Assembly (NCBI GenBank): GCA_965220185.1
Contig: OZ244807.1
Span: 2,578,956-2,642,955 of the forward strand
Direction: 5' to 3'
DNA: 64,000 nucleotides
From: Candidatus Azotimanducus sp.
GTDB taxonomy: Bacteria > Pseudomonadota > Gammaproteobacteria > Pseudomonadales > Azotimanducaceae
Below the pieces are notes generated by a model, which did no database searches, was not told where the DNA came from, and saw nothing but the letters and a program-made list of their open reading frames with translations. A program made the translations under genes and the position numbers. This document shows, one piece after another, positions 25,648-55,805 of this stretch (within the stretch, counting starts at the first letter, position 1; every line of letters starts with the position of its first letter).

Positions 25648-28338
25648 ATGAGCAGCCTCGACTTGGGACTTCTGCCCTCTGGGCATCTGCACTGTTTTTC
25701 ATCGTCCGCTGACAATTCAGCGGACAAAACCCCACTCGGCAAAGCCATTGAAGAGGCTTTTTCGCAGAGCGCGGCTGAAGGCTTGTTCACCTTGGCATCA
25801 AGAAACAGCGACCAAGACCTCACCCCATCCATGCAATACTGGCGCAGCTTCGCCTGCAAGCATCTGAATGACCGCTGCCTGCTCGAAGAGGCCGATGCGG
25901 AGAAACCGCTGCCACTTGCTATCCCTGACGAAGCACAAAGCTCGGCCTGGATCATCAGTGCGCCGCCGATGAAAGGCGCCGAATACCTCTCAGCTGCCGT
26001 TCTCAGCAACATCCACGCCTCGCTTGATGATTGGGTGTGCGCACAAAGCAAGGCAAGCGGAGGGCTTGAAGCGCTGCTCGCCAAACGCGCCCCGCACTTC
26101 CATCAATTGGGGCGCGTCTGCTTCCATCTCGCTGAAAACAAGAACGACCCGGACTATCCATTCGCCTTCATGTCAACCTACGTCGATCAAGGCTCGAGCG
26201 GGCGCCGCAGCCAGCATCGGCCATTGAGTCGCGCACTCAAGGAATATGCTGGCGAAAACAACAAGCAGGCGCTCATACATCTGCTCTCCCCCATCCATCT
26301 CGCCGCCGAAGCGAGCCCTGTCATCAAGGACCTTGTTGATACGGGCGACATCTACCATCCGCTGGCCTGGTCGCCATCAGAGGCATACGAGTTCCTCAAG
26401 GATGCTGGCACGTATGAGCGCTGCGGCGTGCTGGTGCGCCTGCCGGACTGGTGGAAAAAACGCAGTCGGCCACGCGCAAGCGCCACCATCGAGCAGACAA
26501 GTCGCCACGGCCTGACAGCCAACTCAATGCTGGGCTTCAAAGTACATGTTGCGCTCGGCGATGAATCGCTCACCGACGCCGAGCTCGCTGCACTCATGGA
26601 AGCCGATGACGGCCTCGTGCAAATCAAAGGGCAGTGGGTTGAACTGAATCGCGAAAAACTCCGCGAAGCGCTTGCTCATTGGAAGAAGCTAGAGAAACGC
26701 GCAAGCGCAGGCGGCCTCACCTTCGCCGAAGGCATGCGCCTGCTTGCTGGCGCACCAGCCGACTTGTCGGATGATGAGCCGGAAGAGCGCATGGCTTGGT
26801 CCGAGGTGATGCCAAGCAGCCAATTGGCGCAAATGCTTGCCGAGCTGCGCACGCCAGCGCAGCTCAAAACGACCCTGCCCGGCAGCGCCTTGAAAGCGCA
26901 GCTGCGACCCTATCAACAAGAAGGCGTGAACTGGCTGTGGCTGCTCTCCGAGCTTGGCCTCGGCGCGTGCCTTGCCGACGACATGGGCCTTGGCAAAACC
27001 ATGCAGGTCATTTCACTATTGCTGATCCTCAAGAAAAGAGGCTGCGACAAGCCTTCGCTCCTCGTGCTCCCGGCGTCCCTGCTCGGCAACTGGAAGACCG
27101 AGCTTGAGCGTTTCGCGCCAACGCTGCGCACCATCTTCTTTCATCGCTCGCAGCTCGACAAAGACACCATGGACGCCATGGCAAGCAAAGACGCCGCTTT
27201 TGAGAACATCGATGTCGTCCTGACCACCTACGGCACGCTCATGCGTCAAGATGCGCTGCAAGATCAGACTTGGCAGCTATTGGTACTCGATGAAGCGCAA
27301 GCGATCAAGAATCCATCGGCGAGGCAAACGCGGACGGTCAAGCGCATCAATGCCAAATCCAAGGTCGCGCTCACTGGCACACCCATCGAGAACCGCTTGT
27401 CTGATCTCTGGTCGCTGTTCGATTTCCTGAACCCCGGCCTGCTCGGCTCGGCCGCGCGATTCAAGAAGTTCACGAAGTCCCTTGCCGAGCAGCAGAGCGA
27501 TCAATACGCGCCGCTGCGCAAACTTGTGAGTCCGTACATCCTGCGGCGCCTGAAGACCGACCGCTCGATCATCAGCGACCTGCCCGACAAGACCGAAGTG
27601 CTCACCTATTGCGGCCTCAGCCAATCGCAGGCGGCTCTCTATCAGCGCACTGTGGACGAGATGGCGATGGCGCTTGAGCGGCTCGCAGGCATGGAACGCC
27701 GCGGCCTCGTGCTCTCCTACCTCATGCGCTTCAAGCAGATCTGCAACCATCCATCGCAACTGATCGGAGACAATGAGTACGATGCGAAGAAAAGTGGAAA
27801 GTTTCAGCGCCTTGCGGCGCTCTGCGAAGAGATCGCATCGCGCCAGGAGAAGGCTCTCATTTTCACGCAGTTTCGAGAAATGACCGAACCCTTGGCCGGG
27901 TTCTTGTCACAAGTGTTTGCCCATCCCGGCCTCGTATTGCACGGTGGCACTGCCGTGAAGCGCAGGCAACGGCTCGTTGAGCGCTTTCAGGATGAACAAG
28001 GCCCGCCGTTTTTCATCCTCTCTCTCAAGGCAGGTGGCACAGGTCTTAACTTGACGGAAGCTTCCCATGTCATTCACTTTGATCGCTGGTGGAATCCAGC
28101 AGTGGAAAACCAAGCGACAGACCGCGCCTTCCGCATTGGACAAAAGAAGAACGTGCTCGTACACAAGCTGGTCTGCCAAGGCACGATCGAAGAGAATATC
28201 GATGCGTTGATCAAAGAAAAAACCGCCTTGGCCGAGGATGTTCTTGAGGTTGGCGCTGGAGCGCTTCTGACCGAGATGGATAACGACACGATCTTGAAGT
28301 TCGTGTCACTCGACATTGATAAGGCGCTAGCCGCGTAG
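25648..28338 (+). CDS. SNF2-family helicase with a long N-terminal helicase-associated region
   Basis: 896-aa ORF with LADDMGLGKT (motif I), LVLDEAQAIKN (motif II), LTGTPIENRL and C-terminal helicase motifs (SLKAGGTGLNLT, QATDRAFRIGQ). Confidence 0.9.
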   Translation: MSSLDLGLLPSGHLHCFSSSADNSADKTPLGKAIEEAFSQSAAEGLFTLASRNSDQDLTPSMQYWRSFACKHLNDRCLLEEADAEKPLPLAIPDEAQSSAWIISAPPMKGAEYLSAAVLSNIHASLDDWVCAQSKASGGLEALLAKRAPHFHQLGRVCFHLAENKNDPDYPFAFMSTYVDQGSSGRRSQHRPLSRALKEYAGENNKQALIHLLSPIHLAAEASPVIKDLVDTGDIYHPLAWSPSEAYEFLKDAGTYERCGVLVRLPDWWKKRSRPRASATIEQTSRHGLTANSMLGFKVHVALGDESLTDAELAALMEADDGLVQIKGQWVELNREKLREALAHWKKLEKRASAGGLTFAEGMRLLAGAPADLSDDEPEERMAWSEVMPSSQLAQMLAELRTPAQLKTTLPGSALKAQLRPYQQEGVNWLWLLSELGLGACLADDMGLGKTMQVISLLLILKKRGCDKPSLLVLPASLLGNWKTELERFAPTLRTIFFHRSQLDKDTMDAMASKDAAFENIDVVLTTYGTLMRQDALQDQTWQLLVLDEAQAIKNPSARQTRTVKRINAKSKVALTGTPIENRLSDLWSLFDFLNPGLLGSAARFKKFTKSLAEQQSDQYAPLRKLVSPYILRRLKTDRSIISDLPDKTEVLTYCGLSQSQAALYQRTVDEMAMALERLAGMERRGLVLSYLMRFKQICNHPSQLIGDNEYDAKKSGKFQRLAALCEEIASRQEKALIFTQFREMTEPLAGFLSQVFAHPGLVLHGGTAVKRRQRLVERFQDEQGPPFFILSLKAGGTGLNLTEASHVIHFDRWWNPAVENQATDRAFRIGQKKNVLVHKLVCQGTIEENIDALIKEKTALAEDVLEVGAGALLTEMDNDTILKFVSLDIDKALAA

Positions 28339-28350
28339 ACGGGAGAGCAC

Positions 28351-29127
28351 ATGCCAAGGAGACGCAATAGGCGCGACTGGGGATGGCCTCGCTATGTGCC
28401 GGTGGCGGAGCGTCGAGCGAAAGCAGCGCTCCAGATGCTCGCAAGGCGAAAGAAAGGGATCATAGATCAGCCGGTTGTGATTGAAGGGCGCAAGATCGCC
28501 CGCACCTTCTGGGGCGAGGCGTGGTGCAGCCACCTGGAGAAGTTCTCCGATTATGAGAATCGCCTGCCGAGAGGCCGGACTTACGTTCGAAATGGCTCCG
28601 TCTGTCATTTGACGATCTCCAAAGGCAAGGTGGAAGCGCTCGTCATTGGCTCTGATCTCTACAAGGTGAGCATCAACATCAAGCCGCTCTCGCAAAAGCG
28701 CTGGCAGCAGATTCAGAAGCGCTGCGCGGGTCAAATCGGATCGATGCTCGAACTATTGCAAGGCCGATTGTCAAATAACGTCATGGGGATTGTCACCGAC
28801 AAGGAAAATGGCCTGTTCCCTTCGCCTCGCGAGATCGAGCTTGGCTGCGACTGCCCCGATTGGGCGGAGATGTGCAAGCACGTTGCGGCTGTTCTCTATG
28901 GGGTTGGCGCAAGGCTCGATCATCATCCGGAGCTGCTCTTCGAGCTGCGAAACGTTGACCAGCAGGACCTGATTACGGCAGAACTTGAAATCGAGTCAGC
29001 GACCTCAAGCCAAGGCAAAAGGCGGCGCCTTGCGGGCGCCGGTCTCTCTGACGTGTTTGGCGTGGATATCGAGGAAGACGCCGACGAAGCGCCCGAGGAA
29101 CGCGCGTTTTCGTCAACGCTTACCTAG
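28351..29127 (+). CDS. SWIM zinc-finger protein
   Basis: 258-aa ORF with the CxCx(n)CxH motif CDCPDWAEMCKHVAAVLY. It starts 12 nt after the SNF2 gene, with a GGGAGAG SD. Confidence 0.85.
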   Translation: MPRRRNRRDWGWPRYVPVAERRAKAALQMLARRKKGIIDQPVVIEGRKIARTFWGEAWCSHLEKFSDYENRLPRGRTYVRNGSVCHLTISKGKVEALVIGSDLYKVSINIKPLSQKRWQQIQKRCAGQIGSMLELLQGRLSNNVMGIVTDKENGLFPSPREIELGCDCPDWAEMCKHVAAVLYGVGARLDHHPELLFELRNVDQQDLITAELEIESATSSQGKRRRLAGAGLSDVFGVDIEEDADEAPEERAFSSTLT

Positions 29128-29404
29128 GGCGTGTTCACACTATGCCCTAAATTGGTCATACCTTATCAGTGTCTGCGGGCAGGTTAAAGCGCAAGGCGCT
29201 TGCTGCACGGCTTTGCCTTGGAAACAGGCAACAAAATTTTCATTCTCCCTGAAGTAGAGGCTTAAGTCACACATGGAAAGCACCTGCGCGACGCAGAGGT
29301 GCAGCGTTGGTGTCGACGCACGGGCGATCTTATAAGCAGCTACTGGACAGAGGCTCAGACCACATCATCTCGGCTATCGATAAATCCAGCTTGGAATTGA
29401 AAGC

Positions 29405-29734
29405 GTGTACTCCTGTTTCCTTGCGCACGGCACGAATAGGGTGTTCCCTGACACGCCACAAAACAAGGCTGAAGTTGTGCGTGGGTTGAACGTTCTCGCA
29501 AACACGGGGTTTGGTAGACGGGATTACGATTCCCCCAGCAGTGATGCGTTCAAGAGCATGGTGTACCGCCTGCACGCCCAGCTTCAGACTGATCAAGATT
29601 TCAAAGCCAACTTTGAGAACGCCGTCAGTTCGCCCCACAGAGCGACAGCCATTGACGCTGAGCTACGCCTCAATCGACAAATCAATCTCGCCATTGAGAA
29701 AGCGGAACAGGCGCATAGTGTAAGCACGCCCTAA
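29405..29734 (+). CDS. Hypothetical protein (109 aa, GTG start)
   Basis: This is only an ORF with plausible amino-acid composition. It lies in a lower-GC 0.6-kb segment bracketed by an imperfect inverted repeat. No recognisable motif. Confidence 0.3.
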   Translation: MYSCFLAHGTNRVFPDTPQNKAEVVRGLNVLANTGFGRRDYDSPSSDAFKSMVYRLHAQLQTDQDFKANFENAVSSPHRATAIDAELRLNRQINLAIEKAEQAHSVSTP

Positions 29735-29741
29735 CGCTCCA

Positions 29742-30182
29742 TCAAGCTAATGATGGAACATTATTCGAAAGTCGATGGAACACATAGCCCGCGAGCGCGC
29801 CAGCGACGACTTGACTCGCCATGCCAGCGGCGAAGCGCGTCGCCGGCACGGGATGCATCCCGAACACGGCGAACATGATCATGTGCAGCGCCCACAGGCC
29901 AGCCGCACCGCCAATGACATACCCAAGCCACCTCGGTAACGGCGCGAATTTGAGCACCAGCATGGAAACAGGCATGGCGACGGCAAAGCTCACCGCGACA
30001 AGCGGCAAATACACATTCACCATCCCCGCAAGGTCAAGGAGGCTTGTCTCGATACGCATAGCCAGCGAGACTGCCATGCCGTAGGATGCCACTTCCTGCA
30101 ACGCAACCTGAGCGATCAGCACCACAGACACAATGTATGCGGCGGCAATAGCAGCGATGAATGCGAGAATGCGCCTGATCAT
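29742..30182 (-). CDS. Small integral membrane protein (about 4 TM helices), unknown function
   Basis: Hydrophobic ORF. The probable start is MIRRILAFIAAIAAAYIV at 30182; the track start is 30209. Confidence 0.6.
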   Translation of the reverse strand: MIRRILAFIAAIAAAYIVSVVLIAQVALQEVASYGMAVSLAMRIETSLLDLAGMVNVYLPLVAVSFAVAMPVSMLVLKFAPLPRWLGYVIGGAAGLWALHMIMFAVFGMHPVPATRFAAGMASQVVAGALAGYVFHRLSNNVPSLA

Positions 30183-30320
30183 GCGGACGTTCCAATGAGT
30201 TACGCACAAACATACCAGCCACGCGCGACAAATGAAAGCTGGCGGCTTGGGAATGAGCGTCTGTCACGGTGCAAGTAACAGAAACCCTGTAAGCTTTCGT
30301 GACCAGTTGAAGCAGCAGAC

Positions 30321-31436
30321 ATGACAGCCATGTACCCACGCACTCTCGCCGTCGCACTCCTTGCGCTCGCCCTGAACTTGGCACATTCGGAGGACTACCA
30401 ACTCACGCCGGTCGCGAACGGTCTCGACCACCCTTGGTGCATCGCGTTCCTGCCCGATGGCGGCTATCTTGTCACCGAACTCGGCGGGTCGCTGCGCGAA
30501 ATTTCGCAATCCGGCGAAATTGGTGAGCCCATTGAAGGCGTCCCTGAGGTCTACCACCGCAGCCAAGGCGGACTCTTCGATGTCCTCCTGCACCCAAACT
30601 TCGCCGACAATCAAACCTTGTTCCTTTCATATGCCGCGCCGCCCGCAAGAGACAATGCCACCGAAATCCTGCGCGCCAAGTACATTGACGGTGCCCTCAC
30701 CTCCGCGCAGGTCATTTTCACCGTATCGCCGCGCAAGCCGACACCCGTGCATTACGGCGGTCGCATGGCGTTTCTCAAAGACGACACGCTGCTGCTGACC
30801 AGCGGCGATGGCTTTGATTTTCGCGAGTCGTCGCAAGACCTCGCAAGCGGACTCGGCAAGGTCATGCGCATTCACACCGATGGCAGCGTACCCGACGACA
30901 ATCCCTTTGTGAAAACGCAAGGCGCACTTCCCGAAATCTTCACCTACGGGCACCGCAATCCACAGGGACTTGTGGTGGCATCAGACGGGCGCGTGTACCT
31001 GAATGAGCATGGCCCGCGCGGAGGGGATGAGACGAACCTGCTCGTTGCCAGCGCGAATTACGGCTGGCCAGCCGTCACCTTCGGCCGCGAATACAGTGGC
31101 GGCACCATTTCTCCATTCACCGAAGGCCCCGGCTTCGAGCCACCGCTCAATCACTGGACACCGTCCATCGCGCCATCCGGCCTCGCCGTGTATGAAGGCG
31201 AGCGCTTCCCCGATTGGCAGGGCGACTTGTTTGTCGGCGCATTGGTGGACAAGGAGGTGCGGCGGCTCGATCTTGAGGACGGCGAAATCGTCGCCGAGCA
31301 AGCGCTTTTTGGCAACCTTGACCGCCGCATCAGGGATGTGCGCACACACGATGGCTACATCTATGTAGTCGAAGACGGCGCGGACGCTACGATTTGGCGC
31401 GTCGAACCCGCAGTAAACTTGTCCAAAGTTCTATAG
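30321..31436 (+). CDS. PQQ-dependent sugar dehydrogenase (soluble aldose sugar dehydrogenase, YliI-like)
   Basis: 371-aa ORF with a signal peptide, HPWCIAFLPDG..., YGHRNPQGL and NYGWP. These motifs are typical of the six-bladed propeller sGDH family. Confidence 0.85.
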   Translation: MTAMYPRTLAVALLALALNLAHSEDYQLTPVANGLDHPWCIAFLPDGGYLVTELGGSLREISQSGEIGEPIEGVPEVYHRSQGGLFDVLLHPNFADNQTLFLSYAAPPARDNATEILRAKYIDGALTSAQVIFTVSPRKPTPVHYGGRMAFLKDDTLLLTSGDGFDFRESSQDLASGLGKVMRIHTDGSVPDDNPFVKTQGALPEIFTYGHRNPQGLVVASDGRVYLNEHGPRGGDETNLLVASANYGWPAVTFGREYSGGTISPFTEGPGFEPPLNHWTPSIAPSGLAVYEGERFPDWQGDLFVGALVDKEVRRLDLEDGEIVAEQALFGNLDRRIRDVRTHDGYIYVVEDGADATIWRVEPAVNLSKVL

Positions 31437-31445
31437 GCAACATTC

Positions 31446-32387
31446 ATGAATTCCAGTAGATTGTCAGCGCTGGTGCTTTTCGCAGCGCTCGTGTTCGCAC
31501 CGAAGGCGCTCGTACACGATGCCGTCAGCGTCCAAGCGTTTGCATCCCAGGTTGGCTGGGATTTCGATGCGCCGGTGAGTGTCGAACAATTGAGTCCCGC
31601 CTTGTCGGTCGTGTTCGGCGTTGGCGGCAACGTGACTGTCTCAATCGGCGATCAGGGTGTGCTGATCGTCGACGACCAGTTCCCGCAAACCATCGGCAAG
31701 ATTCAGCAGGCAATCGCCGATGCGGGCGGCGGCGACATCGACTTCGCCGTCAACACGCACTGGCACTTCGATCATGCCGACGGCAATCCGGTGCTCGGCG
31801 CCGAAGGCACCTGGCTGGTCTCGCACGCTGCGTCGCGGCGCATGATGGTGAGCGAGCAACTCGTTGATCTTGCGGTGGTGAATCTCATCCAGCAACCCTA
31901 CCCGGCGGAAGGCTTGCCGGTGATCACCTTCGATACAGCCATGCAGTTCCACTTCAACGGCGAGAAGATCGAGCTCGTCCATTTCGGCCCCGCACACACC
32001 ACCGGAGACGCCGCTGTGATATTTCGGGGATCGAACGCCGTGCATCTCGGCGATGTTTTCAACAACGCCGGCTATCCGTTCATCGATGTGCACAATGGCG
32101 GCGACCTAGACGGCATGATTCGATTCTGCAAAGATGTCTTGTCCAAGATCGATGCTGACACGCACGTGATTCCGGGCCATGGGCCGATTGTCGGCATCGA
32201 AGCGCTTGAAGCATATATCGACATGCTTGAAGTGACGAGAAAGCGCATCTCGCGCATGATCGATGCTGGCATGAGCCTCGCCGATGTGGTCGAAGCAGAG
32301 CCCACCGCCGACTATGACGAACGCTACGGCGATCCGACGATCTATGTGAATCGCAGCTACGCTTCGCTCGCGCGCAAGGGCGGATAG
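31446..32387 (+). CDS. MBL-fold metallo-hydrolase, secreted
   Basis: 313-aa ORF with a signal peptide, the metal motif HWHFDHADGN, and later HTTGD and PGHG. Confidence 0.85.
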   Translation: MNSSRLSALVLFAALVFAPKALVHDAVSVQAFASQVGWDFDAPVSVEQLSPALSVVFGVGGNVTVSIGDQGVLIVDDQFPQTIGKIQQAIADAGGGDIDFAVNTHWHFDHADGNPVLGAEGTWLVSHAASRRMMVSEQLVDLAVVNLIQQPYPAEGLPVITFDTAMQFHFNGEKIELVHFGPAHTTGDAAVIFRGSNAVHLGDVFNNAGYPFIDVHNGGDLDGMIRFCKDVLSKIDADTHVIPGHGPIVGIEALEAYIDMLEVTRKRISRMIDAGMSLADVVEAEPTADYDERYGDPTIYVNRSYASLARKGG

Positions 32388-32508
32388 AGAGGATTGAAGT
32401 TATCGGCAAACCGGTGCGTACAGCATCAAATTTTGGGACCTATATACGTTTGCCTTACCACGGCAAATATCGTAAGCTGAGAGCAGCCACAAAATTGGAG
32501 TGCTCCAC

Positions 32509-33174
32509 ATGACACGTTCACCCCCCCCCCCCCCCCCCCTCACTAAATTAGCAACCTTCTTTCTGCTGGCAGTGCTTGCGGCACCGCTAGCGGCGCAGAC
32601 GACCGTCACCAGCGGCGGGCGAGACGGTCCGACCACTTGCATGGGTGAACAACAGGAGGTCAATGCTACGGCTTTCGACATCACGAGCATAACAACAAGC
32701 CTCATCAGGTACACGACTCCGGCTGTCACATGGGGCCAATACACCGGGCGGCTCGGCGATCTCTCAGCACCTATAAGGGCCAGTGTGTATGCCGCTCTTT
32801 ACAATGCCAAAACTCAGGCAAGAGTAGGCCAGGCGAGTTTAGGTGACATATCAAGCACGCGGAACATTAGTGCTCGAAGTACACCACTAGCCAGAACAGT
32901 TTCTGCGAAAACTTCCTATTACCTAGAAATTAACGCGGCTGCGACAGGCTCCATTCCGAAGCAGGTGTTCGCGAGACGCTGCTTCATGACCGGCGGCACC
33001 TACACCATGAATGTCGCCCCTGGAACTGAAGGCCGGAGCAGCGGGTGCTTCTCGATCAGCCCCTTTACCCAACAGGATGTCCGCAACTGCTGGTGCGGGC
33101 GCAGGAACAACCTGCCCCTATTCAGCTCAACACAGGGCAACACCGATTGGCACAACATGTGGGGATGCCGGTAG
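32509..33174 (+). CDS. Small secreted protein, poly(C)-leader family member A (tract in frame)
   Basis: ATG 32509 has GGAG 9 nt upstream. The product begins MTRS-PPPPPP-LTKLATFFLLAVLAAPLAA/QTTV, a signal peptide. The mature part is Cys-containing with no recognised domain. The track ORF starts at GTG 32500. Confidence 0.7.
   Translation: MTRSPPPPPPLTKLATFFLLAVLAAPLAAQTTVTSGGRDGPTTCMGEQQEVNATAFDITSITTSLIRYTTPAVTWGQYTGRLGDLSAPIRASVYAALYNAKTQARVGQASLGDISSTRNISARSTPLARTVSAKTSYYLEINAAATGSIPKQVFARRCFMTGGTYTMNVAPGTEGRSSGCFSISPFTQQDVRNCWCGRRNNLPLFSSTQGNTDWHNMWGCR
32521..32539 (+). repeat. Homopolymeric C19 tract
   Basis: Counted directly: 19 consecutive C between A32520 and T32540, within codons 5-11 of the gene. 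Confidence 0.95.
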
Positions 33175-33176
33175 CG

Positions 33177-34068
33177 GCCCCTGCCGGACACGGGCGTGGC
33201 GGCATCCGGACCGCCCCTGTCGTTGCGGACCGCCGCCGCCCGTCCCTCCGGATGCGGAGGGCGTTGACAGACTTGTCTCGCCGTTCATGGGCGGCGGCTC
33301 GGTGAGATCGCCTGCGCGAAGGAGCTTGGCATTGACGTGCTTGCTTACGATGTGTTCGATATTTTGTGCACGTATTGGAAGTGCCAGCTGCGCACCCCGG
33401 ACGCGCTCTACAAGCGGTTGCTTGAACTGCCTCCGAACCGCGACACATTCAAACGTGTGAAAGAGCGGTTGAAGCGCCACTGGACGGGCGTTGAGCGGAT
33501 GCACTATCAGGATGTGGCCGCGCACTACTATTTCAATTCAAACACATCCTACGGTCCCCACTTCCTTGGCTGGCCGTCGGATGTCTATCTGAGCGATGCG
33601 CGATACTCAGGGATGATTGAGAAGGCAAGGGCGTTTTCAGCGCCGTCATTGCGCGTGGAGTGCGGGCGCTTCGAGAACACCATGCCTAGCAGCCTGTTGA
33701 AAAAGTCGATTTAGTGCCACTTTGACCATAAACGCGAAAATATAACTCATTGATTATTCAGAATATTTATTTTTTGAGATGTCGGTTCCGGGTGTCTGTA
33801 GGTGGTTTTTCAACAGGCTGCTAGGCACAAGGGCGAGCTTCTGTACTGCGGCCCACCCTACTACCTTGACGAAGGCAAGACGTTTGTCGGGATGTACCCG
33901 CACCGGAACTTCCCTATCCACCACAAAGGATTCCGCCATGACCTGCTGCGCGATCTGCTGCTCGCGCACAAGGGCGGATTCATCCTCTCGTACAACGACT
34001 GCGAGACGATTCGCGACTGGTATTCCGATTGCGAGATGTTCGAACCGCAAGGGTACGATGGCGCGTGA
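33177..34068 (+). pseudogene. Decayed D12-class (Dam-like) N6-adenine DNA methyltransferase
   Basis: Motif I, LVSPFMGGGSV, lies in one frame and ends at 33304. The text continues as EIACAKELGIDVLAYDVFDIL...AAHYYFNSNTSYGPHFLGW...RFENTM in the +2 frame, consistent with a missing G in GTG(G)AG. It is then interrupted by an inverted-repeat element, and resumes as HKGELLYCGPPYY...GGFILSYNDCETIRDWY. Motif IV reads GPPY instead of (D/N/S)PPY. Neither the N-terminus nor the C-terminal end could be reconstructed. Confidence 0.55.
33683..33827. mobile_element. 145-bp MITE-like element: 22-bp perfect terminal inverted repeats around a 101-bp AT-rich core
   Basis: TGCCTAGCAGCCTGTTGAAAAA (33683..33704) is the exact reverse complement of 33806..33827. 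The element sits inside the methyltransferase reading frame and introduces a stop (TAG 33712..33714). Confidence 0.6.
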
Positions 34069-34193
34069 ACAGGCACCATTTCGACAAGGCGCCGAGGGAC
34101 GAGCCTACGCTAGGAGTCTGCGCCGTAGGAAGTTGCGCAAGGCGAAATTCGTGAACGTGCCCCCATGCTAAAATCAGAACACCTTTCAGGTAC

Positions 34194-35429
34194 GTGTTCA
34201 GTCGTTTGATGCGCCAGTTCAACCCCACCGCCCTTCAAGCCTATATCGATGAACGTGACCGCCAGTCACCGCTGTTTTTCACAGGCCGTCAAAACGAGAT
34301 TGGCATGGCACAAGTGACATTTCACAATGTACAAGCCGGAAAAACACAAGGGAACACCGTCGTTTTTCAAGGTGCACCCGGTGCAGGCAAAACCGCATTG
34401 CTCGACCACCTGCAAAAAACGCTACAAGGCGAATGCGATACCGCGAAATTGAAAGCGGCTTCAGTACGACGCCCACATACCGCATTGCTTGAAGTGCTGA
34501 AGCAACTCAACCCGAAACAAGCCAAGAAAATCAGAAAAGGTCGTCATGTGCGACACCGATCTGGTTTGAATACCCCCTTGGAATTAGGACGGGACATCAC
34601 CACAACCGACAATCCGAAATCGATCAGCACAGTCGAAGAACTGATGGCATTACGAAAACGTAAAAAGCCATTGCTCTTGTTCCTTGACGAAGCACAAAAC
34701 GCCAACGGCGATGAGCCTGATGGAACAAGCTCAATTCTTCAGGAACTCCATGAAGGGGACGTCGGAAATGTCGCATTGATTGCGGGCGGGTTGTCTGATA
34801 CGAGCACAACGCTCAAATCCCTTGGCATCTCAAGACTCGCATCCGATAGCAAAACGACCTTGCAACCACTCGGCGAAGCGCATGTACGAGAAGCACTTGA
34901 TGCGTTCCTAGCGCACACACCGTTCGGCATTGATTGTCACGGGCACGATACATCTGCCCTGCAACAACTCGTTGTGAACGAATCTTTTGGGTGGCCACAA
35001 CACCTCACAAACGCACTGCGTTCATTGGGCGAAGAATTGATTCGGGTAGGCGGACGACTTGCCGAATGCGACCTGCACGCGGTGCAGCAGGCATCACAGG
35101 CTCGCAGGGAGTCGTATTACGGCGAACGCGCAGAAGGTATCAGCTCACATCTACTTCGAGCGGTCATTCAAACCGTCCCCCGAAACGGGACCGTGTCGTC
35201 TGAGGCGGTGAAAGACGCGATTGCCGAGGCGTATCAAACCAGACCGATTATGGAAGATGAACTACCCCGAAAAGAGGCGTGGCGACACCTCGTGCATCGC
35301 GGCATCTTGGAACCGGACGCACACACTGACCAAGTACGTGTGCCGATTCCGTCCATGCACGACTACATCGCCGAAAGAACACGGTCACAGACACAAGAGA
35401 CGCCCGCAGAATCAGACCTTGGGTATTGA
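34194..35429 (+). CDS. P-loop NTPase (ORC/Cdc6- or AAA_22-like), paralogue of 55806..56954
   Basis: 411-aa ORF with FFTGRQNEI, Walker A QGAPGAGKTALL and Walker B LLLFLDEAQ. The motifs SFGWPQHL, SYYGER and VPIPSMHDY are shared with the paralogue. The start is GTG 34194 or ATG 34209. Confidence 0.8.
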   Translation: MFSRLMRQFNPTALQAYIDERDRQSPLFFTGRQNEIGMAQVTFHNVQAGKTQGNTVVFQGAPGAGKTALLDHLQKTLQGECDTAKLKAASVRRPHTALLEVLKQLNPKQAKKIRKGRHVRHRSGLNTPLELGRDITTTDNPKSISTVEELMALRKRKKPLLLFLDEAQNANGDEPDGTSSILQELHEGDVGNVALIAGGLSDTSTTLKSLGISRLASDSKTTLQPLGEAHVREALDAFLAHTPFGIDCHGHDTSALQQLVVNESFGWPQHLTNALRSLGEELIRVGGRLAECDLHAVQQASQARRESYYGERAEGISSHLLRAVIQTVPRNGTVSSEAVKDAIAEAYQTRPIMEDELPRKEAWRHLVHRGILEPDAHTDQVRVPIPSMHDYIAERTRSQTQETPAESDLGY

Positions 35430-35519
35430 TAGCGCCCTGCCCTCCCTTGGGACGTATAGACATTTCGATGTGCGCCACGACAAAGTCATAGGCATCTCGC
35501 GACAGGTATTCAGACCCCC

Positions 35520-35954
35520 TCAACATTCGGGCGCGGATTTTTTCAGCAGTATCTCCTCGATCGTTTCGATGCTGATTCCGGTCTTGGCTTCTTTCTCGTT
35601 GGAGAGCGGCGATGCGCTCACCGCACGCGTGCCGAAGAATGATATGGGGACACCGTGTCTACTAAACAAAAAGCCCTGTCCGGCATAGACTTCAAGGCCA
35701 GTGATTTCCTCTCGCTTCTCCATTTCACCGAAGCCTGAAAACAACTCCGACAAAGGCATGTCCGCATGTTCGAGCTCATCAAAGAAAAGACCGATATCTG
35801 TGCTATGCCTGTGCCTCCATCGCGCCGCGAGCACGCTGCCGCCACCCATTCTGTAGCGTTCACGGCTTGTCCAGCAATCAAGCACTCGCACAAACCATTG
35901 CAATGGTTCCAGCAAATGCGAGGCGAGATGGAGGACGGGCTGCATGAACATCAA
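35520..35954 (-). CDS. Putative nucleotidyltransferase-fold protein (AbiEii-like toxin candidate, short)
   Basis: 144-aa ORF. GGGSVLAARWRHRHSTDIGLFFD resembles the GGtAL...R.S.DiDlf motif of AbiEii/DUF1814 nucleotidyltransferases. It overlaps the upstream gene in an ATGA arrangement. Confidence 0.4.
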   Translation of the reverse strand: MMFMQPVLHLASHLLEPLQWFVRVLDCWTSRERYRMGGGSVLAARWRHRHSTDIGLFFDELEHADMPLSELFSGFGEMEKREEITGLEVYAGQGFLFSRHGVPISFFGTRAVSASPLSNEKEAKTGISIETIEEILLKKSAPEC

Positions 35955-36388
35955 ATCCTAGAACTCAAGTTCCACGTTCGATAGTGCTCTCGCTGCGGCA
36001 GGTAGCCGGGCACATGCCCATTGATCCAGTCGCCAAGCAGATGATGTCGAACGTCACACGCGATCATCGCTCTTGCGATCTGATAACGAGAAACGCCGCA
36101 ATACATCAGGAAGCGACGCATGTCCTCGCAGTCGAACTGCATGAGCAATCCACGCAGGTAGGAGCGTTCGTCTACATCGAACCGCCCGGCGAGAATCATC
36201 TGGCGTATCTGCGCGGGTGAACGCCGGACCGCGGAGCCGGCCATACGGCTTGTGCTGATGGCGGAAATCTTGTCGGGATGGAATTCGCTGAGATCGTGCA
36301 TGCCCGGCCTGTCAAAGTCTTCGAGCGGCAGAACTTCAACCGGAAGTCGCCAAGCGAAATGCTTCTCTTTGAACATTGAGGAACCCAT
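35951..36388 (-). CDS. Hypothetical protein with a possible HTH (antitoxin or regulator candidate)
   Basis: 145-aa ORF, translationally coupled to 35520..35954. The segment FLMYCGVSRYQIARAMI looks like a helix-turn-helix. Confidence 0.4.
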   Translation of the reverse strand: MGSSMFKEKHFAWRLPVEVLPLEDFDRPGMHDLSEFHPDKISAISTSRMAGSAVRRSPAQIRQMILAGRFDVDERSYLRGLLMQFDCEDMRRFLMYCGVSRYQIARAMIACDVRHHLLGDWINGHVPGYLPQREHYRTWNLSSRI

Positions 36389-36469
36389 ATCGAGGAAACC
36401 ATGTGAAGGAGCGCGCTTGATCGCTATTTTACTTGCGCTTTGATAGAGTGGATTATCAACTTTTTCTAT

Positions 36470-47019: not shown

Positions 47020-50000
47020 TCACCAGCGCAGCGCGATATCAAACCCGATGCCGTGCTCAGCTGCGGCCGCACCGCCTTCCCTGCGGGTTGCCGTGAGACC
47101 AACCGACAGGTCGGGCGCATTCACGGCCTCCGGTGCCAGTCGCCAGCCGATGCTGTAGTCGCGCCATAGCTGGGAGTGCCCGAACCCGATCTGCGGGCTG
47201 GCGGTGAAGCGACCGCCGAAGGCTGCGAAGCCCCAGCCCGCCTGCATCGACCAGCGCCCTGCCGCCGCGTTCGCCGCAAGGCCCTGCGTGCGGTGCTCTA
47301 GCGACGCCGACGCGAACAGGGCATCTAGCCCTCCTCGCGACAAGCCGCCATAGTCCTGTCGGAGGCTGAATACCGGCCCCCTGCCCGTCGTCGAGTCCGG
47401 GTCGTAGGACAGCGAGACGGAAACGCCCGAATCCTCGAAGCCGCTGTCCTCGTGCGTCACGAGCGTGCGTCCTGAAACATCAAGCGCGAGGCCAAGCGAC
47501 GGCGCGGTCCAAGCGAATCCACCGCCTATTTCCGCTCCTAGGCCGGTCTCGGCGTCGCCGCCGTCATGGCGCAGGCCCGCTTCCAGCCTAGGAACGATCC
47601 CGGCACCGTTCGCCAGCGCCATCCGCCAGCTGCCTTCCAAGCCGAACCTGAACCCGGTCACGGTGGTATCCGATGCCGAAAGGCCCTGCACCTCATCCGA
47701 AGAGGTCCGCGTCCACAGCGCGTCCGACACCACCGACAGCCCTGCGCCGCCAACGGATAGCAGTTCGCCCCGCAAGCCCGCAGCCGCCATGTGCCAGCGC
47801 GTGTCCGCAGAAAGATCCTCGCCAGCCCCTGTTTTCAGGCTCACTTCGCCTTCGCCAAGGCCCGCCGCGCCCCATATCCTCAAACGCTGCGAAAGCCGCG
47901 CCGCCGCGTAGGGAACCGCCGATGTCAGCGTCGCCTCAACGTCGCCAGCGCCTACCGCAAGGCCGCACGGCGCCGCAGCCTCCGCGCACTCCGGGTTGCC
48001 GGACAGGGGTGCGATGCCTGAATCGTGGTAGCTGCCCTCGCTCGCGCTGCGCACCAGCGCCAGACCTGCCAGCCAGCCGTTGCGGGCGTAGTCCGCGCCC
48101 AGTAGGCCCGTCGACACCTCGCCACCTAGCGACAGGGAGTCCTCGCGACCGTCAAAGCGAGCGTGCGAGGCGCGACCCCAGAACGCCACACTGCCGCCCG
48201 AAGCGTCGCTCTCGCCAGTCAGCGAGAAGTTCGACCCAGCCAAGGCATCGCGCAAGTCCATTGCTTCGGAACGCACCGCCGCGGGTTGCCTCGCCAGCTC
48301 GCCGTAGCCGTAGACTCCGAGGCGCGGCGTCCCGCGGCCTGCCGCCGCCCCGAACGGCGCACTGGCGTCCGCGCCTATTTCCGGGGACGGGCCGAAGCCG
48401 AGTGCACGGCCTGCGAAGCTGCCCTGCATTCCCGGCGCGCGCTCCGCATCGATACGGTCAGCAATGCCGTCGAGTGCCTGTTCCGCCACGGCCCGACCGA
48501 AGCGGGCTAGATACGCCCCCGGTAGCGCGCCGTCATTCGTGATCGTGCCCGTGGCCACTCCGTCGGCGACGGTCACCTCAAAAGTCTCATCGTGCCCCAC
48601 GACCACCAGGTGAAGCACCACCTCGAAGGTCTCACCATCGTCGTTGTGCGCATCGCGCAATGTCGAGACCGATATCTTCTTCTCGGTTTCCCCCTTGCGG
48701 AAGGTGGCCATCGACAACCGGGCACCTTTGTAGTCCACGCCTTCCGTCGCCGATGCCGGCGATGTCTCCCGCGTCTGCCAGAACACATGGGCTTTGCCCG
48801 GCGAGGGCGCCGAAAGGCGCATGATGAATTCCATCGCGGTGCCCTCATCCGCCTCGGCGTCGTCCACCGAAACCGTCAGCGGCACCTCGGCGGCCAAGGC
48901 CGGCGCCCGCTGTGCCTCGACCGGATCGTCGTCGTCCAAGATGTCCACCGCCAGCGAGGACTGCGTACCCACCGTATAGCCGTCCCCTGCGTTCAGCGTC
49001 AAAGTCACCGAGCCGTTCGGCTCGTCCGCGCTGTCGCCCACAGTCGCTACCGTCAGCGTCGCGCTGCCGGTCGCAGGGATGGTCACCGTGCGGTCGCCAG
49101 TCGTCACGCCGTAGTCGCCCGCCGCCGTTACCGTCACGCTCACCGCAAGGCTCGACGCCGGCGCTGGCGCCGCCGTCAGCGTGAAGGTGGCATCGCCGCC
49201 CTCGGTGCCGCCGGAGGCCGCCGTGATGTTCACCTCCGGGGGTTGCGGCGCCGGTTCTTCGGCCTGCTGCCCAGCGGAAACGGTGCACTTGGACGAATCC
49301 CCACCGTCGCACGCCGCCTTGCGCTCAAGCTCCGTCACCACTGCAACCCATCGGTCCCAGCCCTTATCGACATAGCTCTGGGCCTCGGTCACCGTCATCG
49401 GCTCGTCGTCGCCCTTCTCCTCCCCGAGCGCGATCAGCACCCGCACCCAGCGGTACGAATGCAGCGAGCCGTGTTGCGTTTCATTCAGCCACTCCCGGAT
49501 ATTCGCCACAAGTTCCGCGTTCGGCACGAAGGCGGATGCTGGTGCTAGCGCCTCCTGCTTCTTCAGCGCCGCAATCACTTCTGTCCAGCGGTTGCTCTGC
49601 GCGGTGTCCTGTTGAGCGATCCCCTCCGCCTCGCTAGAGGTCATCGGCGTCAGGTTAATAAGGTCGACCTTGATCGGGCCCAATGCCTTCAGCACCCGCT
49701 TCCAGCGAGTTACGCACTCCGAACTGCACGAGGTCTCGCGCGTCCAGCCGCGGATCCGCGTCACCAGATCCACCTCGTCGTCGTCAATAAACAGCGTGTG
49801 CCACGACACAAGGCCGAGGTCATAGTGATCGGTATCCGTCAGGATCAGCTTCACCGTCTCCAAGGGCTCGTATGCGTCATCGTCAATCATGGTCACCGGA
49901 ATGTCCACATAGGTGGCATCCTTGGCCACTGCGACCGTGTCCGCCACCGTGAAGTCCGCATTCCTCGTCGCCGCCCACTTGGTGTCGCCCAACGTGTACT

Positions 50001-52188
50001 CGAGCGTCAGCGATGCGGCCGGGGCCGGGCTGAAGTTGACCCGCACGTTGTGCGTGCCGCCAGCCTCGTTCGCACTCGACGAGGTCGACTCGAAGCTCGC
50101 CACTGGCACCACGTCGTTGTCCGACACCGCCACGCTCGCCGAAGCGGAACTGCCCACCGTGTAGCCATCGCCGGAGGTCACGGCGGCATCGATCGAGCCG
50201 TCCGCCTCGTCGACGGCGTCGTCGTCGGTCGCCACCGTGAAGTCCGCCGTGCCGCCCGCGCCCACCGTCACCGTGCGCGTGCCCGTCTCGCCCGAGGCGG
50301 CGAAGCTGCCCGTCTCGGATACCGTCACCGACACCTGAATGTCCGAAGCGGGCGCCGGCGTCGCCGTCAGCGTGAAGGTGGCATCCGCACCCTCCGTTAC
50401 TGGCGAGCCGCCGGAGATGCTAATCTCTGGAGTCTGCGGCACCAGTTCGGACCGCTGCCCGACGGCGGGGATGCATGCCTCAAGGCGCTCTAGCTCCTCG
50501 CGCACCTCGCGCCAGCCATCCCACGCCTGCTCCCCGACTCGCGCCTCCGCCGACGTGTAGGGCTGCAGAGTCGCGTGCGTCTCCTCCCCGAACGCGATCA
50601 GCACGCGCAGCCAGTTTTCGCCGTGGTTGCGCTCCGCGCGCCCGCGGTTCAGTTCGTAGTAGCCGCGCACCTTCTTCACCAGCTCCGCCGAGGTCGCCGT
50701 ACACGCCAAAGGTGGCACAACCGAATCCAACAGGGCTGGCGCGACCGGGTCGTCGTCGTCCAAGATATCCACCGCGAGCGAGGACAGCGCGCCCACCGCA
50801 TAGCCGTCCCCCGCGTTCAGCGCCAGCGTCACCGAGCCATTCGGCTCGTCCGCGTCGTCGTCCACGGTCGCCACCGTCAGCGTTGCGCTACCGGTCGTGG
50901 GGATCGTCACCGTGCGGTCGCCAGTCGTCACGCCGTAGTCGCCCGCCGCCGTCACCGTCACGCTCACCGCAAGGTTTGATGCCGGCGCTGGCGTCGCCGT
51001 CAGCGTGAAGGTGGCATCGCCGCCCTCGGTGCCGCCGGAAGCTGCCGTGATGTTCACTTCCGGGGTTTGCGGCACCGGTTCGTTCTGTTGCCCGGGGGTG
51101 CCGCTGAGAGCGCTCCCGCAGGCTTCCAATCGCTCCAGCTCCGCGCGCACCGGACGCCAGCCCGACCTCCATATCGCCTCGCCCGCACGGGCCTCGGCCA
51201 CCGTGTAGGGCTGGAGTGTGGCGTGCGTCTCCGCACCGAAGGCAATCAGCACCCGCAGCCAGTTCTCGCCGTAGTTGCGATCCGCGCGGTTACGGTTCGC
51301 CTCGTAGTAGCGGCGAACCTCCTGCACCAAGTCAGCCGAGGTTGCGGGGCAGGATCGATCGTTGTCATACACTCGAACATATCGCAGAGTTTCCGTTTGT
51401 TTTAAGTAATATTTAGAGTTAGAAGATAGCAGGAGTTCGACAACAATGTCGTCGTAACCCTCGCGGGCGGGCACATCGTCATCCAAGGTAGACATCGAAA
51501 AGGTGATCGAGGACTGTCCAGCCGGGAAGACGACGCACTTTGTTCCTTCATCCTTCTGCGCAAGGAAGTTGCCATTGCCGTAGCGCGAGTCCCGCAGATG
51601 AAGGCAGACTTGGAAGCTCTCCTTCGGAGCCTGGCCCTCCGCTTTGATGGTGAAGTCCACGGTACCGCCTTCGTCAACCCAAGTGTGGTTCCAGTAATCA
51701 GGTATCTCCGGCGCTTCGCTCGTGAGGCTCAAGATGGGGCGGTCGCCTGAGTCGTTGTCCTTCACCACTATCCATATGTAAGGCCTCCAGCCGTTACCGG
51801 AAAAGCCGGCACGGGTGCGTAGCGGCTTCGTGCGGCCAGTGTACGGCGTCACGCCTATCCGCCTGTCATTCTCATCCACTTCGTTGTCGACCGTGGGGAC
51901 GCTTGCAGGAAGTTCGCGCGTGCCAGCCGGTATGGTGTAGTTGATGAATCCACGGCCATCTTCGATAAGCACGGGCACCACCAAGTCCACCTTCTGCACC
52001 GGCGTGACCCGAAGGGTGAAGGTCATAGGCTCGCCTTCCGTGACTGCGGGACCGGCCTTGATCTCAATCTTCGGGAGGTCCCAGAAACTGACTTTGGCGC
52101 TAGCTGCCGGCGCGAGGGCTGCCAGCAGCGGCAACCAGAGGAGGACGGCAAGAATGCCAATGCGGGAGAAGCTTCTTTCGCTCATCAT
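47020..52188 (-). CDS. Giant Calx-beta repeat autotransporter (about 1720 aa)
   Basis: The probable start is ATG 52188 (MMSERSFSRIGILAVLLWLPLLAALAPAASA, with AAGG 7 nt upstream); the track ORF starts at GTG 52227. The passenger has Calx-beta-like units ending ..ILDDDD, ..VSDND and ..MIDDD, and four helical modules. The C-terminus is an autotransporter barrel (...GFRFGLEGSWRM...LRHDGGDAETGLGAEIGGGFAW...GIGFDIALRW). Confidence 0.9.
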   Translation of the reverse strand: MMSERSFSRIGILAVLLWLPLLAALAPAASAKVSFWDLPKIEIKAGPAVTEGEPMTFTLRVTPVQKVDLVVPVLIEDGRGFINYTIPAGTRELPASVPTVDNEVDENDRRIGVTPYTGRTKPLRTRAGFSGNGWRPYIWIVVKDNDSGDRPILSLTSEAPEIPDYWNHTWVDEGGTVDFTIKAEGQAPKESFQVCLHLRDSRYGNGNFLAQKDEGTKCVVFPAGQSSITFSMSTLDDDVPAREGYDDIVVELLLSSNSKYYLKQTETLRYVRVYDNDRSCPATSADLVQEVRRYYEANRNRADRNYGENWLRVLIAFGAETHATLQPYTVAEARAGEAIWRSGWRPVRAELERLEACGSALSGTPGQQNEPVPQTPEVNITAASGGTEGGDATFTLTATPAPASNLAVSVTVTAAGDYGVTTGDRTVTIPTTGSATLTVATVDDDADEPNGSVTLALNAGDGYAVGALSSLAVDILDDDDPVAPALLDSVVPPLACTATSAELVKKVRGYYELNRGRAERNHGENWLRVLIAFGEETHATLQPYTSAEARVGEQAWDGWREVREELERLEACIPAVGQRSELVPQTPEISISGGSPVTEGADATFTLTATPAPASDIQVSVTVSETGSFAASGETGTRTVTVGAGGTADFTVATDDDAVDEADGSIDAAVTSGDGYTVGSSASASVAVSDNDVVPVASFESTSSSANEAGGTHNVRVNFSPAPAASLTLEYTLGDTKWAATRNADFTVADTVAVAKDATYVDIPVTMIDDDAYEPLETVKLILTDTDHYDLGLVSWHTLFIDDDEVDLVTRIRGWTRETSCSSECVTRWKRVLKALGPIKVDLINLTPMTSSEAEGIAQQDTAQSNRWTEVIAALKKQEALAPASAFVPNAELVANIREWLNETQHGSLHSYRWVRVLIALGEEKGDDEPMTVTEAQSYVDKGWDRWVAVVTELERKAACDGGDSSKCTVSAGQQAEEPAPQPPEVNITAASGGTEGGDATFTLTAAPAPASSLAVSVTVTAAGDYGVTTGDRTVTIPATGSATLTVATVGDSADEPNGSVTLTLNAGDGYTVGTQSSLAVDILDDDDPVEAQRAPALAAEVPLTVSVDDAEADEGTAMEFIMRLSAPSPGKAHVFWQTRETSPASATEGVDYKGARLSMATFRKGETEKKISVSTLRDAHNDDGETFEVVLHLVVVGHDETFEVTVADGVATGTITNDGALPGAYLARFGRAVAEQALDGIADRIDAERAPGMQGSFAGRALGFGPSPEIGADASAPFGAAAGRGTPRLGVYGYGELARQPAAVRSEAMDLRDALAGSNFSLTGESDASGGSVAFWGRASHARFDGREDSLSLGGEVSTGLLGADYARNGWLAGLALVRSASEGSYHDSGIAPLSGNPECAEAAAPCGLAVGAGDVEATLTSAVPYAAARLSQRLRIWGAAGLGEGEVSLKTGAGEDLSADTRWHMAAAGLRGELLSVGGAGLSVVSDALWTRTSSDEVQGLSASDTTVTGFRFGLEGSWRMALANGAGIVPRLEAGLRHDGGDAETGLGAEIGGGFAWTAPSLGLALDVSGRTLVTHEDSGFEDSGVSVSLSYDPDSTTGRGPVFSLRQDYGGLSRGGLDALFASASLEHRTQGLAANAAAGRWSMQAGWGFAAFGGRFTASPQIGFGHSQLWRDYSIGWRLAPEAVNAPDLSVGLTATRREGGAAAAEHGIGFDIALRW

Positions 52189-52289
52189 CAATACCTTTTC
52201 GATTCGGCCTATGTGTGGCAGCGCCACTATGGGTCAAATGATACACGCCTATCACTCATCCTGAAAAACCAGACGCAATGTTTCATTTT

Positions 52290-54056: not shown

Positions 54057-54084
54057 TTGACAAAAAGCGAAATCTGTTTATTAT
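54057..54084 (+). promoter_or_regulatory. Near-consensus sigma70 promoter for the 54119 gene
   Basis: TTGACA (54057..54062), a 16-nt spacer, then TATTAT (54079..54084). GGAG at 54109..54112 lies 6 nt before ATG 54119. Confidence 0.6.
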
Positions 54085-54118
54085 GCCTGAGCATCATTCA
54101 GCTTATTTGGAGAAAGCT

Positions 54119-54683
54119 ATGAAACGATTACCCCCCCCCCCCCCCCCCACCCCCCCCGCTCGCTAAGTTAGCGGCGTTCCTGTTGCTGACAGTATTTGCT
54201 CTGCCTGCATGGGGGCAAGCAGAGTATTTTGCACCCAGGAATACAAGCGCTGTCGCGAAAAGTCAGAGCGACGAGCAACTCTGGGGCGATAGAGTCTGTT
54301 TTTACGCAAGGATAATCGAAATCTCAGATTCAAGCGCAGTAGGGACCGTGCAGTTCTACTACCCTTTAGGTGGCGAATCAGACTCTCTTGCTCCGACAGC
54401 CCCAGAACAAGATGTTGAGATCTGGACCTTGGCACTTAATACAACGGACTATCCAGCCAATCAGTTTAGGGGCAACAAGGCTGGATATGATCATCTTGGA
54501 GGGATCCATCTCATATCGGACAACGATCAGGTGAAACTCTGGAAGCCCTCCTCCCATTACGGCGTCAACTGGGTGCGGCTGGAAATGGATACCCCAAAAC
54601 TCAGGGTCCCTGGTCAGCAACTCAGTCCCGGTTCACCACCTACTTCCGGAAGCGCATGTCGGAACGAGGGTTGGGGATTTTAA
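54119..54683 (+). pseudogene. Small secreted protein, poly(C)-leader family member C, 1 nt out of frame within the tract (phase-OFF state or homopolymer length error)
   Basis: As assembled, ATG 54119 reads MKRLPPPPPPTPPAR and stops at TAA 54164..54166. The 166-aa ORF body (track 54183..54683) is open from 54123 in the +1 frame. Removing one C gives MKRLPPPPPPPPPLAKLAAFLLLTVFALPAWG/QAEYF..., a signal peptide homologous to member A. Confidence 0.65.
54131..54157 (+). repeat. Interrupted homopolymer C18-A-C8
   Basis: Counted directly: C at 54131..54148, A at 54149, C at 54150..54157. Confidence 0.95.
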
Positions 54684-54715: not shown

Positions 54716-54743
54716 AAAAGGCGGCCTTCGGGCCGCTTTTTTT
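54716..54743. terminator. Rho-independent terminator, potentially bidirectional, between convergent genes
   Basis: The sequence is AAAAG-GCGGCC-TTCG-GGCCGC-TTTTTTT: a GC stem with a tetraloop, flanked by an A-run and a T-run. Confidence 0.75.
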
Positions 54744-55692: not shown

Positions 55693-55805
55693 GAGGCTGC
55701 ACCTTGCTGTGTGTTGGCTGTGTTGGCAGTGTATCCGCAATGGCAGTCAGGCGGCACACAAGTGTCGGTATACTTCCATGCGGGCATCAAAGCTCGCGCA
55801 CTGAC

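Follow-up and report, generated by a model that had tools for sequence, protein, structure and literature searches.

A 19-nt poly-C tract within a signal-peptide leader: a probable slipped-strand phase-variation switch in a multicopy family of predicted secreted proteins

Why should a bacterial gene carry 19 consecutive cytosines within the region that codes for its signal peptide? The gene in question lies in a 64-kb stretch of Candidatus Azotimanducus sp. (contig OZ244807.1, Azotimanducaceae), hereafter referred to as the window; unless another contig is named, coordinates are positions within it. We refer to the gene with the C19 leader as locus A and to a second poly-C leader gene in the same window as locus B. 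A preliminary description of the DNA had singled out the tract of locus A and suggested that a slip of one base would switch the whole protein on or off. Our analysis of the locus, its close relatives, and other leaders of the same design indicates that it is probably a slipped-strand phase-variation (contingency) locus. The elements of locus A are as follows:

32428..32508, plus strand: conserved upstream block (putative promoter and 5' untranslated region), duplicated together with the leader (paralog alignment)
32497..32500, plus strand: Shine-Dalgarno (SD) sequence GGAG, with an 8-nt spacer to the ATG (direct reading)
32509..32520, plus strand: start codon and signal-peptide n-region M T R S (ATG at 32509..32511, then ACA CGT TCA)
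32521..32539, plus strand: C19 homopolymer, the proposed slipped-strand switch, in frame (ON) (direct reading)
32539..32595, plus strand: hydrophobic core and signal-peptidase site, with cleavage between LTKLATFFLLAVLAAPLAA and Q (by inspection)
32544..32551, plus strand: TAAATTAG, which closes both wrong frames (TAA and TAG) and reads as a conserved K-L in the right one (direct reading)
32596..33174, plus strand: mature secreted protein, a putative FN3-like beta-sandwich followed by a Cys-rich C-terminal part, stop included (alignment, AlphaFold2)

Direct reading confirmed that there are exactly 19 C and that they are in frame; the first 18 are read as six CCC proline codons, while the last one opens a CTC leucine codon. 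Past the tract, the open reading frame (ORF) continues as LTKLATFFLLAVLAAPLAA, is followed by QTT after the predicted cleavage site, and ends at the stop codon 33172..33174, for a total of 221 amino acids. The GGAG motif had been placed at 32496..32499, one base too far to the left; in all other points the preliminary description of the sequence proved accurate. By inspection, the signal peptide has a basic n-region, a hydrophobic core of 17 to 19 residues, and a conserved small-residue site, and the cleavage boundary before QTTVTS is kept across the family alignment (44 aligned members). From these features of the leader, the product is predicted to be secreted or exposed at the surface. The upstream block matches the paralogous cassettes L098, L005:4013, and L005:1062 nearly base for base, with the homology to locus A beginning at 32428 by BLAST, and the MTRS n-region is also present in L005 and L098. 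A scan for sigma-70 promoters upstream of locus A found no consensus site.

A tract of this length is not expected from base composition, as the preliminary description had stated. C makes up 30.7% of the window, and at least 19 of them in a row are expected 8e-6 times with independent bases and 1e-7 times with a first-order model; no homopolymer longer than 7 exists in the 64 kb besides the tracts of loci A and B. As a simple-sequence repeat (SSR), a homopolymer of about 8 or more in the 5' coding region is long enough for slipped-strand mispairing, and C19, which begins four codons past the ATG, clearly belongs to this class. The predicted effect of a slip on the 221-amino-acid protein also holds: in a C18 variant the ATG frame reads MTRSPPPPPPSLN and stops, and in a C20 variant it reads MTRSPPPPPPPH (ending in ...PH) and stops. 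Only C16, C19, or C22 joins the n-region to the hydrophobic core. Locus A has the frame geometry of a phase-variable locus of the translational type, with a change of frame for one repeat unit and an early end in the wrong frames.

Tract length was then compared in related genomes, as the preliminary description had proposed, and the outcome agreed with its prediction. The ortholog lies in L105, a circular contig of 2.42 Mb (labelled 2209x) syntenic with window positions 27493..36398, and the two backbones are about 99.9% identical, with approximately one mismatch per 1 to 2 kb outside a few patches. The L105 leader is identical to that of locus A except that it carries C18; it reads MTRSPPPPPPSLN before the stop and is off. 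This C18/C19 difference is the sole indel between L105 and the window from 30.35 to 33.17 kb (about 2.8 kb cleanly aligned). The L105 cargo ORF, of 212 codons, is intact in the other frame, and the gene caller reported only a 62-amino-acid fragment at this position.

The same variability was found among paralogs. Among cassettes in which the MTRS leader follows 130 nt of nearly identical upstream sequence, the tracts are C19 in the window, C18 in L098, and both C9 and C33 in L005. L098 and L005 have in common only a 1,353-nt cassette, 97.3% identical and located in different genomic contexts, with C18 in the former versus C9 in the latter, and other recent paralog pairs differ as C13/C12, C11/C16, and C15/C9. 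Tract length therefore changes between close relatives with conserved flanks, with locus B as a counterexample (see below). The C33 of L005 (1062..1094) is the longest tract found; it is preceded by the upstream block and MTRS of locus A but belongs to a different Cys-rich cargo, with which it is out of frame.

Could these differences be consensus artefacts, i.e., real tracts of fixed length seen through the homopolymer calling errors of long reads? Some contig names (e.g., ctg..._181x_rc) suggest that a long-read metagenome assembler was used, and one sister contig has a 1-nt indel compared to the protein of the chromosome. Nevertheless, differences of 5 to 15 nt (C9, C18, and C33; C11 versus C16; C15 versus C9) are far past calling error, and the 2.8 kb of clean alignment at locus A contain no other indel. 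Moreover, C19 was obtained for locus A in two assemblies, and the interrupted tract (C18-A-C8) of locus B likewise in two. Tracts of C9 to C14, in both frame states, were also found in contigs of metagenome-assembled genomes (MAGs) named NODE_..._cov_, which we take from the style of the name to be short-read SPAdes assemblies, and therefore the tracts are not an artefact of one sequencing platform. We consider this explanation very improbable as a general one, although a calling error could still affect the single C18/C19 call.

To place locus A among other genes with this architecture, we used a scan of species-representative genomes that yielded 150 coding stretches, and the best 80 of these plus the window were examined for leaders, defined by an SD sequence, an ATG, 2 to 8 codons, a C run of at least 6, and a hydrophobic core. 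The leader family to which the preliminary description had alluded proved to be real: there are 71 distinct leaders of the same design, with tracts from C6 to C33 (mode C9) and the C always on the sense strand. They precede at least five unrelated cargo proteins; seven leaders have cargoes outside the family of protein A (the product of locus A), of at least five types, all of them small Cys-containing secreted proteins without Pfam matches. Only 11 of the 71 are in frame with the SD-ATG (15%; binomial test against 1/3, p = 0.001), whereas 36 need a shift of -1/+2 and 24 one of +1/-2. Stops in both wrong frames occur within 15 nt of the tract in 52 of the 71, and the motif TAR-NN-TAR, which in the right frame is the conserved K-L, is found within 18 nt past the tract in 51, versus 0.35% of random 18-mers. 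Since only 6 of the 60 off copies have an alternative start in the cargo frame 5' of the tract, off copies make no signal peptide.

Some leaders carry compound repeats (L069 294.., L071 3917.., and L008 3771..3779 on the minus strand), in which poly-C is followed by (CA)n, read as PPPHTHTH, or by (TC)6, adding a second slippage-prone unit. Long poly-C tracts were also found outside leaders, in intergenic positions (L025 6051..6065, L034 6132..6143, L029 4913, L033 4754, and L101 2800..2819), and the recent duplicates L025 and L034 differ at theirs (C15 versus C12). These intergenic tracts may be promoter-spacing repeats.

The low number of in-frame copies brings up the question of whether the family is decaying around a mutational hot spot. 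In that case the poly-C would be a sequence prone to expansion that was inherited along with the leader, most copies would be dead pseudogenes, and locus A would just happen to be in frame. An in-frame share of 15%, under the random 33%, would fit, and a few ORFs are shortened (L024, L061, L063, L064, L067, L074, and L075). But the cargo ORF is intact behind 65 of the 71 leaders, among them 54 of the 60 that are off, where it measures 480 nt or more, and the pairwise ratio of nonsynonymous to synonymous substitution rates (dN/dS) among off copies is 0.44 in the N-terminal part, 0.72 in the variable middle, and 0.39 in the C-terminal part, i.e., 0.39 to 0.44 in the conserved parts. Intact ORFs and these dN/dS values indicate that the off copies are not long-dead pseudogenes. 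Also at odds with decay are the conservation of off-frame stops right after the tract across different junction types, the recurrence of the design across bacterial classes and ahead of cargoes that are unrelated to each other, and the fact that the off copy at locus B retains a consensus promoter, an SD sequence, and a terminator. Decay as the main explanation thus appears improbable.

A second alternative places the slippage at the RNA level. RNA polymerase on a C run of at least 9 nt, or the ribosome on CCC, would slip in every copy and deliver a fixed in-frame fraction; the tract would be a dimmer setting low expression instead of a heritable state, and the DNA frame would matter little. 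The predominance of C9 (25 of the 71 leaders, 24 of these 25 out of frame) is in line with this idea, C9 being just long enough to fill the RNA-DNA hybrid. So are the stability of C9 tracts between paralogs and the fact that off copies are intact and under constraint. On the other hand, programmed slippage sites keep a fixed out-of-frame arrangement that always needs the same shift, while here the required shift is mixed (36 of -1/+2, 24 of +1/-2, and 11 of none) and orthologs and near-identical cassettes vary in DNA length and frame. Besides, the in-frame share climbs with tract length, from 2 of 31 for C6-9 and 3 of 27 for C10-13 to 6 of 13 for C14 and longer (Fisher test, p = 0.003), which suggests that selection sees the DNA frame. 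Long tracts may thus mark loci in active use, the C9 copies being comparatively parked. RNA-level slippage, the main rival explanation, seems an unlikely substitute for DNA-level switching, with which it is nonetheless compatible.

Finally, the prolines themselves could be what is selected, as a functional poly-proline spacer or sorting motif within the signal peptide. In-frame members do have prolines there, from PPP to PPPPPPP, with the n-region on one side and the hydrophobic core on the other. Yet about 85% of the copies do not translate prolines in the cargo frame, the number of prolines varies from about 2 to 7, and all the codons are CCC even though the genes of the window prefer CCG (53% of proline codons versus 21% for CCC). 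With CCC disfavoured, the pure C run is a feature of the DNA and not a result of selection for proline, and we find a protein-level role scarcely credible.

We therefore return to phase variation by slipped-strand mispairing, which would work as follows. The C19 would be a hypermutable SSR that splits a Sec-type signal peptide in two, a 5' half with promoter, SD sequence, ATG, and short basic n-region, and a 3' half with the core, the cleavage site, and the cargo. Mispairing at replication would lengthen or shorten the tract, by a single base or by several. Of the three length classes, one (C16, C19, C22) would fuse both halves, and the other two would meet a stop within about four codons (the TAA or TAG of TAAATTAG), leaving only a peptide of 12 to 13 residues. 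The mature protein would be unaffected by the change in length because the proline run leaves with the signal peptide. Because copies are many and mostly off in the consensus, a population would carry its secreted or surface proteins in combinations that are set at random and inherited. The anatomy of the locus, its conservation across the family, the frame logic, and the differences in length among close relatives were observed here; that slippage at replication is the cause, and that switching is reversible, frequent, and of benefit, we infer.

Locus B offers a second example within the window. Its elements are the following:

54057..54084, plus strand: promoter-like TTGACA-16-TATTAT, with 11 of 12 consensus matches (promoter scan)
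54109..54130, plus strand: GGAG at 54109..54112, ATG at 54119, and n-region M K R L (direct reading)
54131..54157, plus strand: second switch, C18-A-C8 (interrupted poly-C), OFF, in need of -1 or +2 nt (direct reading)
54159..54683, plus strand: out-of-frame core (cleavage between LAKLAAFLLLTVFALPAWG and QAE) and an unrelated small secreted cargo (sequence comparison)
54164..54171, plus strand: TAAGTTAG, double off-frame stop; the ATG frame terminates at the TAA 54164..54166 (direct reading)
54721..54743, plus strand: GC hairpin GCGGCC-TTCG-GGCCGC and then T7, an intrinsic-terminator-like end (sequence and T7 run)

The leader of locus B (54119..54171) is out of frame by one base, and its cargo is a 174-codon ORF in the +1 frame. 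The leader DNA of both loci is about 75% identical across some 45 nt, while no sequence similarity was found between the locus B cargo and protein A. A scan flagged the same 54721..54743 hairpin on the opposite strand. Three homologs of the locus B cargo were found, in both Arenicellales and Paracoccaceae genomes, and all have poly-C leaders (C10 ON, C13 OFF, and C14 OFF). In the Paracoccaceae contig OZ244919 (L100 2683..4423), a leader gene of the locus B type (C13, off) is found together with a 2OG-Fe(II) oxygenase gene, and both are inserted into the operon of ribosomal protein genes, with L16 on one side and L29 on the other.

Several observations weigh against phase variation by tract slippage. 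The in-frame share of 15%, below the 33% chance level, also fits a partial decay of the family, and the modal C9 coincides with the length of the RNA-DNA hybrid, so that RNA polymerase slippage could blur the DNA state. Many paralog pairs keep C9 in both members at 3 to 6% flank divergence, and the C18-A-C8 of locus B is unchanged in strain L102, which is 99.5% identical over 6.3 kb. In addition, a long-read consensus may miscount an 18- to 19-nt homopolymer by one. Even in a nonrepeat context, L098 (2860..2875; ERZ25072144 contig_19) has GGCCCGG where the chromosome protein P0030 implies GGCCGG. This 1-nt difference, present in one assembly only, shifts the frame of the mature domain. Whether it arose in assembly or is a real variant, it calls for caution with exact homopolymer lengths.

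What does the switch control? Protein A belongs to a small, habitat-restricted, unannotated, and multicopy family, with 137 relatives in a large protein collection and 164 cluster representatives among 1.84 billion. Six cysteines are invariant in the family alignment. The AlphaFold2 model (pLDDT 84) has a beta-sandwich at residues 58-167 and then a short helical Cys-rich C-terminal part. Foldseek gave weak matches only (E of about 2e-3 and up, template modelling score of ~0.28 on the query), with Ig, FN3, and C2 folds mixed; the fold is no more than a generic sandwich of the Ig/FN3/C2 type. Positions 85-165 of the family profile had weak remote matches to repeats that Pfam assigns to fn3 in large proteins. 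No family match was found for protein A in Pfam or NCBIfam; it does not reach the Pfam fn3 gathering score, and a distant family member attains 18.5 bits versus a cutoff of 25. A sequence search of the PDB with protein A and an Rfam search of the leader region gave no match either. From the predicted fold, a role in binding or adhesion might be guessed. No relatives were found in the viral contigs searched for the family, and hence there is no sign of carriage by phages.

Around the two leader genes we noted some other features. AAA_16-type ATPase genes sit 1 to 2 kb downstream of both (34194..35429 and 55704..56954); these paralogs are 28% identical and have the motif FGWPQHLT in common. We considered the ATPase as a component of the system and discarded it, since relatives are near only about four other loci (L014, L032, L078, and L099), a loose neighbourhood. 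Next to locus A there are two adjacent ORFs in the same frame with an in-frame stop between them, 33337..33714 (125 amino acids), which has no Pfam match, and 33802..34068 (88 amino acids), which matches the C-terminal part of a D12-class N6-adenine DNA methyltransferase. L105 is annotated with the same split, which would fit a conserved pseudogene as well as a gene made of two parts. The window also codes for a large adhesion-type protein of 1,735 amino acids with Calx-beta domains (47020..52227, minus strand).

The alignment with L105 has an additional peculiarity. At the 3' end and 3' flank of gene A (window 33000..33400, L105 5585..5800) there are 45 differences in 400 nt. On the L105 side, this dense patch matches a paralogous member (L098/L005) at its 3' end with 96% identity, a pattern that looks like gene conversion between paralogs. 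Further dense-mismatch patches (window 30000..30600, 35000..35200, and from 36200 onward) suggest localized recombination.

Which bacteria carry these leaders? The 80 best loci come from MAGs of several alpha- and gammaproteobacterial orders, labelled Paracoccaceae, Aestuariivita, Rhodospirillaceae, Arenicellales, Pseudomonadales, and Thiotrichales, as well as Candidatus Poriferihabitans/Poriferihabitaceae, with up to at least 14 copies per genome. Arenicellales have been reported in sponges by published papers, and together with the MAG names this points to symbionts of marine sponges. Copies from alpha- and gammaproteobacteria are 75 to 87% identical at the nucleotide level, and this comparison indicates that the family spread horizontally. 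Scans of metagenomes with DNA patterns for the poly-C and the leader junction retrieved nothing in the first case and, in the second, only unrelated matches that were mostly AT-rich or eukaryote-like.

A broader interpretation is possible but doubtful, namely that the leader is a portable switch module made up of the upstream block, SD sequence, basic n-region, poly-C, double stop, and hydrophobic core, which would move between unrelated cargoes and across bacterial classes within one animal host and generate combinatorial variation of the secretome for the whole community. The C9 copies would then be parked silent cassettes and the long-tract copies the active ones, with paralogs swapping segments by gene conversion, possibly aided by a G-quadruplex on the G-rich strand of long tracts. 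Such a system would be a hybrid of phase variation of the opa type and recombination of the pilE/pilS type, in nonpathogenic symbionts.

Slipped-strand switching of an individual leader has well-known counterparts. In Neisseria pilC1/pilC2, a poly-G tract in the region coding for the signal peptide turns the exported protein on or off with a 1-nt change. As in pilC, the homopolymer of G/C lies a few codons past the ATG within the leader, and there are several paralogous copies. In contrast to pilC, the C are on the sense strand, there are dozens of copies in place of two, and the leader serves unrelated cargoes and occurs in different bacterial classes. No PilC/PilY1 homology was found for protein A in Pfam or NCBIfam, and the likeness is one of switch design only.

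A parallel in organization is found in Neisseria opa, with CTCTT repeats in the leader, and in Helicobacter pylori outer membrane protein genes such as oipA, sabA, and hopZ, with CT repeats in the signal sequence. These are also multigene families with a repeat in each signal-peptide region, mostly off, in which the residues encoded by the repeat are cleaved. They differ in the repeat unit, which is a penta- or dinucleotide there and a homopolymer here (although some of our members add (CA)n or (TC)n), in the cargo, here a small soluble-looking, putatively FN3-like protein and not a beta-barrel, and in the bacteria, here environmental and animal-associated and not human pathogens. In scale, the family resembles Campylobacter jejuni, with tens of G/C homopolymers of ~8 to 13 nt per genome in genes for surface structures that give rise to stochastic phasotypes. 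However, the tracts of Campylobacter are at varied positions in enzyme genes, while here they occupy one fixed position in a common leader module with a conserved double stop. Protein A is homologous to none of the proteins encoded by these Neisseria, Helicobacter, and Campylobacter loci. Transcriptional slippage is known from the recoding of insertion sequence (IS) elements and dnaX and from poly(A) rescue in insect endosymbionts, mostly at A/T runs with a fixed DNA arrangement. As in those genes, runs of at least 9 nt can yield RNA of mixed length, which would let out-of-frame copies leak some product; unlike in them, DNA length and frame differ between orthologs and between recent duplicates.

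The type of switch is thus known, although its scale is unusual and the group of organisms unexpected; the novelty lies in the protein family, its ecological setting, the copy number, and the use of one leader on unrelated cargoes across classes. In the literature searched, the coverage of which did not extend to subscription journals, we found no account of phase variation driven by repeats in bacteria that live with sponges. Gene callers miss the off copies or cut them short, and for many proteins of the family the annotated start lies immediately upstream of the cleavage site; current annotations therefore leave most of this portion of the secretome out of view. Surface proteins that repeats switch on and off are typical of pathogens adapted to a host. 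With dozens of copies, several cargo types, and both alpha- and gammaproteobacterial lineages with names suggestive of sponges, the scale found here would imply that selection on what is shown to the host or to phages is strong and fluctuating, and the benefit of switching would be escape from phages or from recognition by the host.

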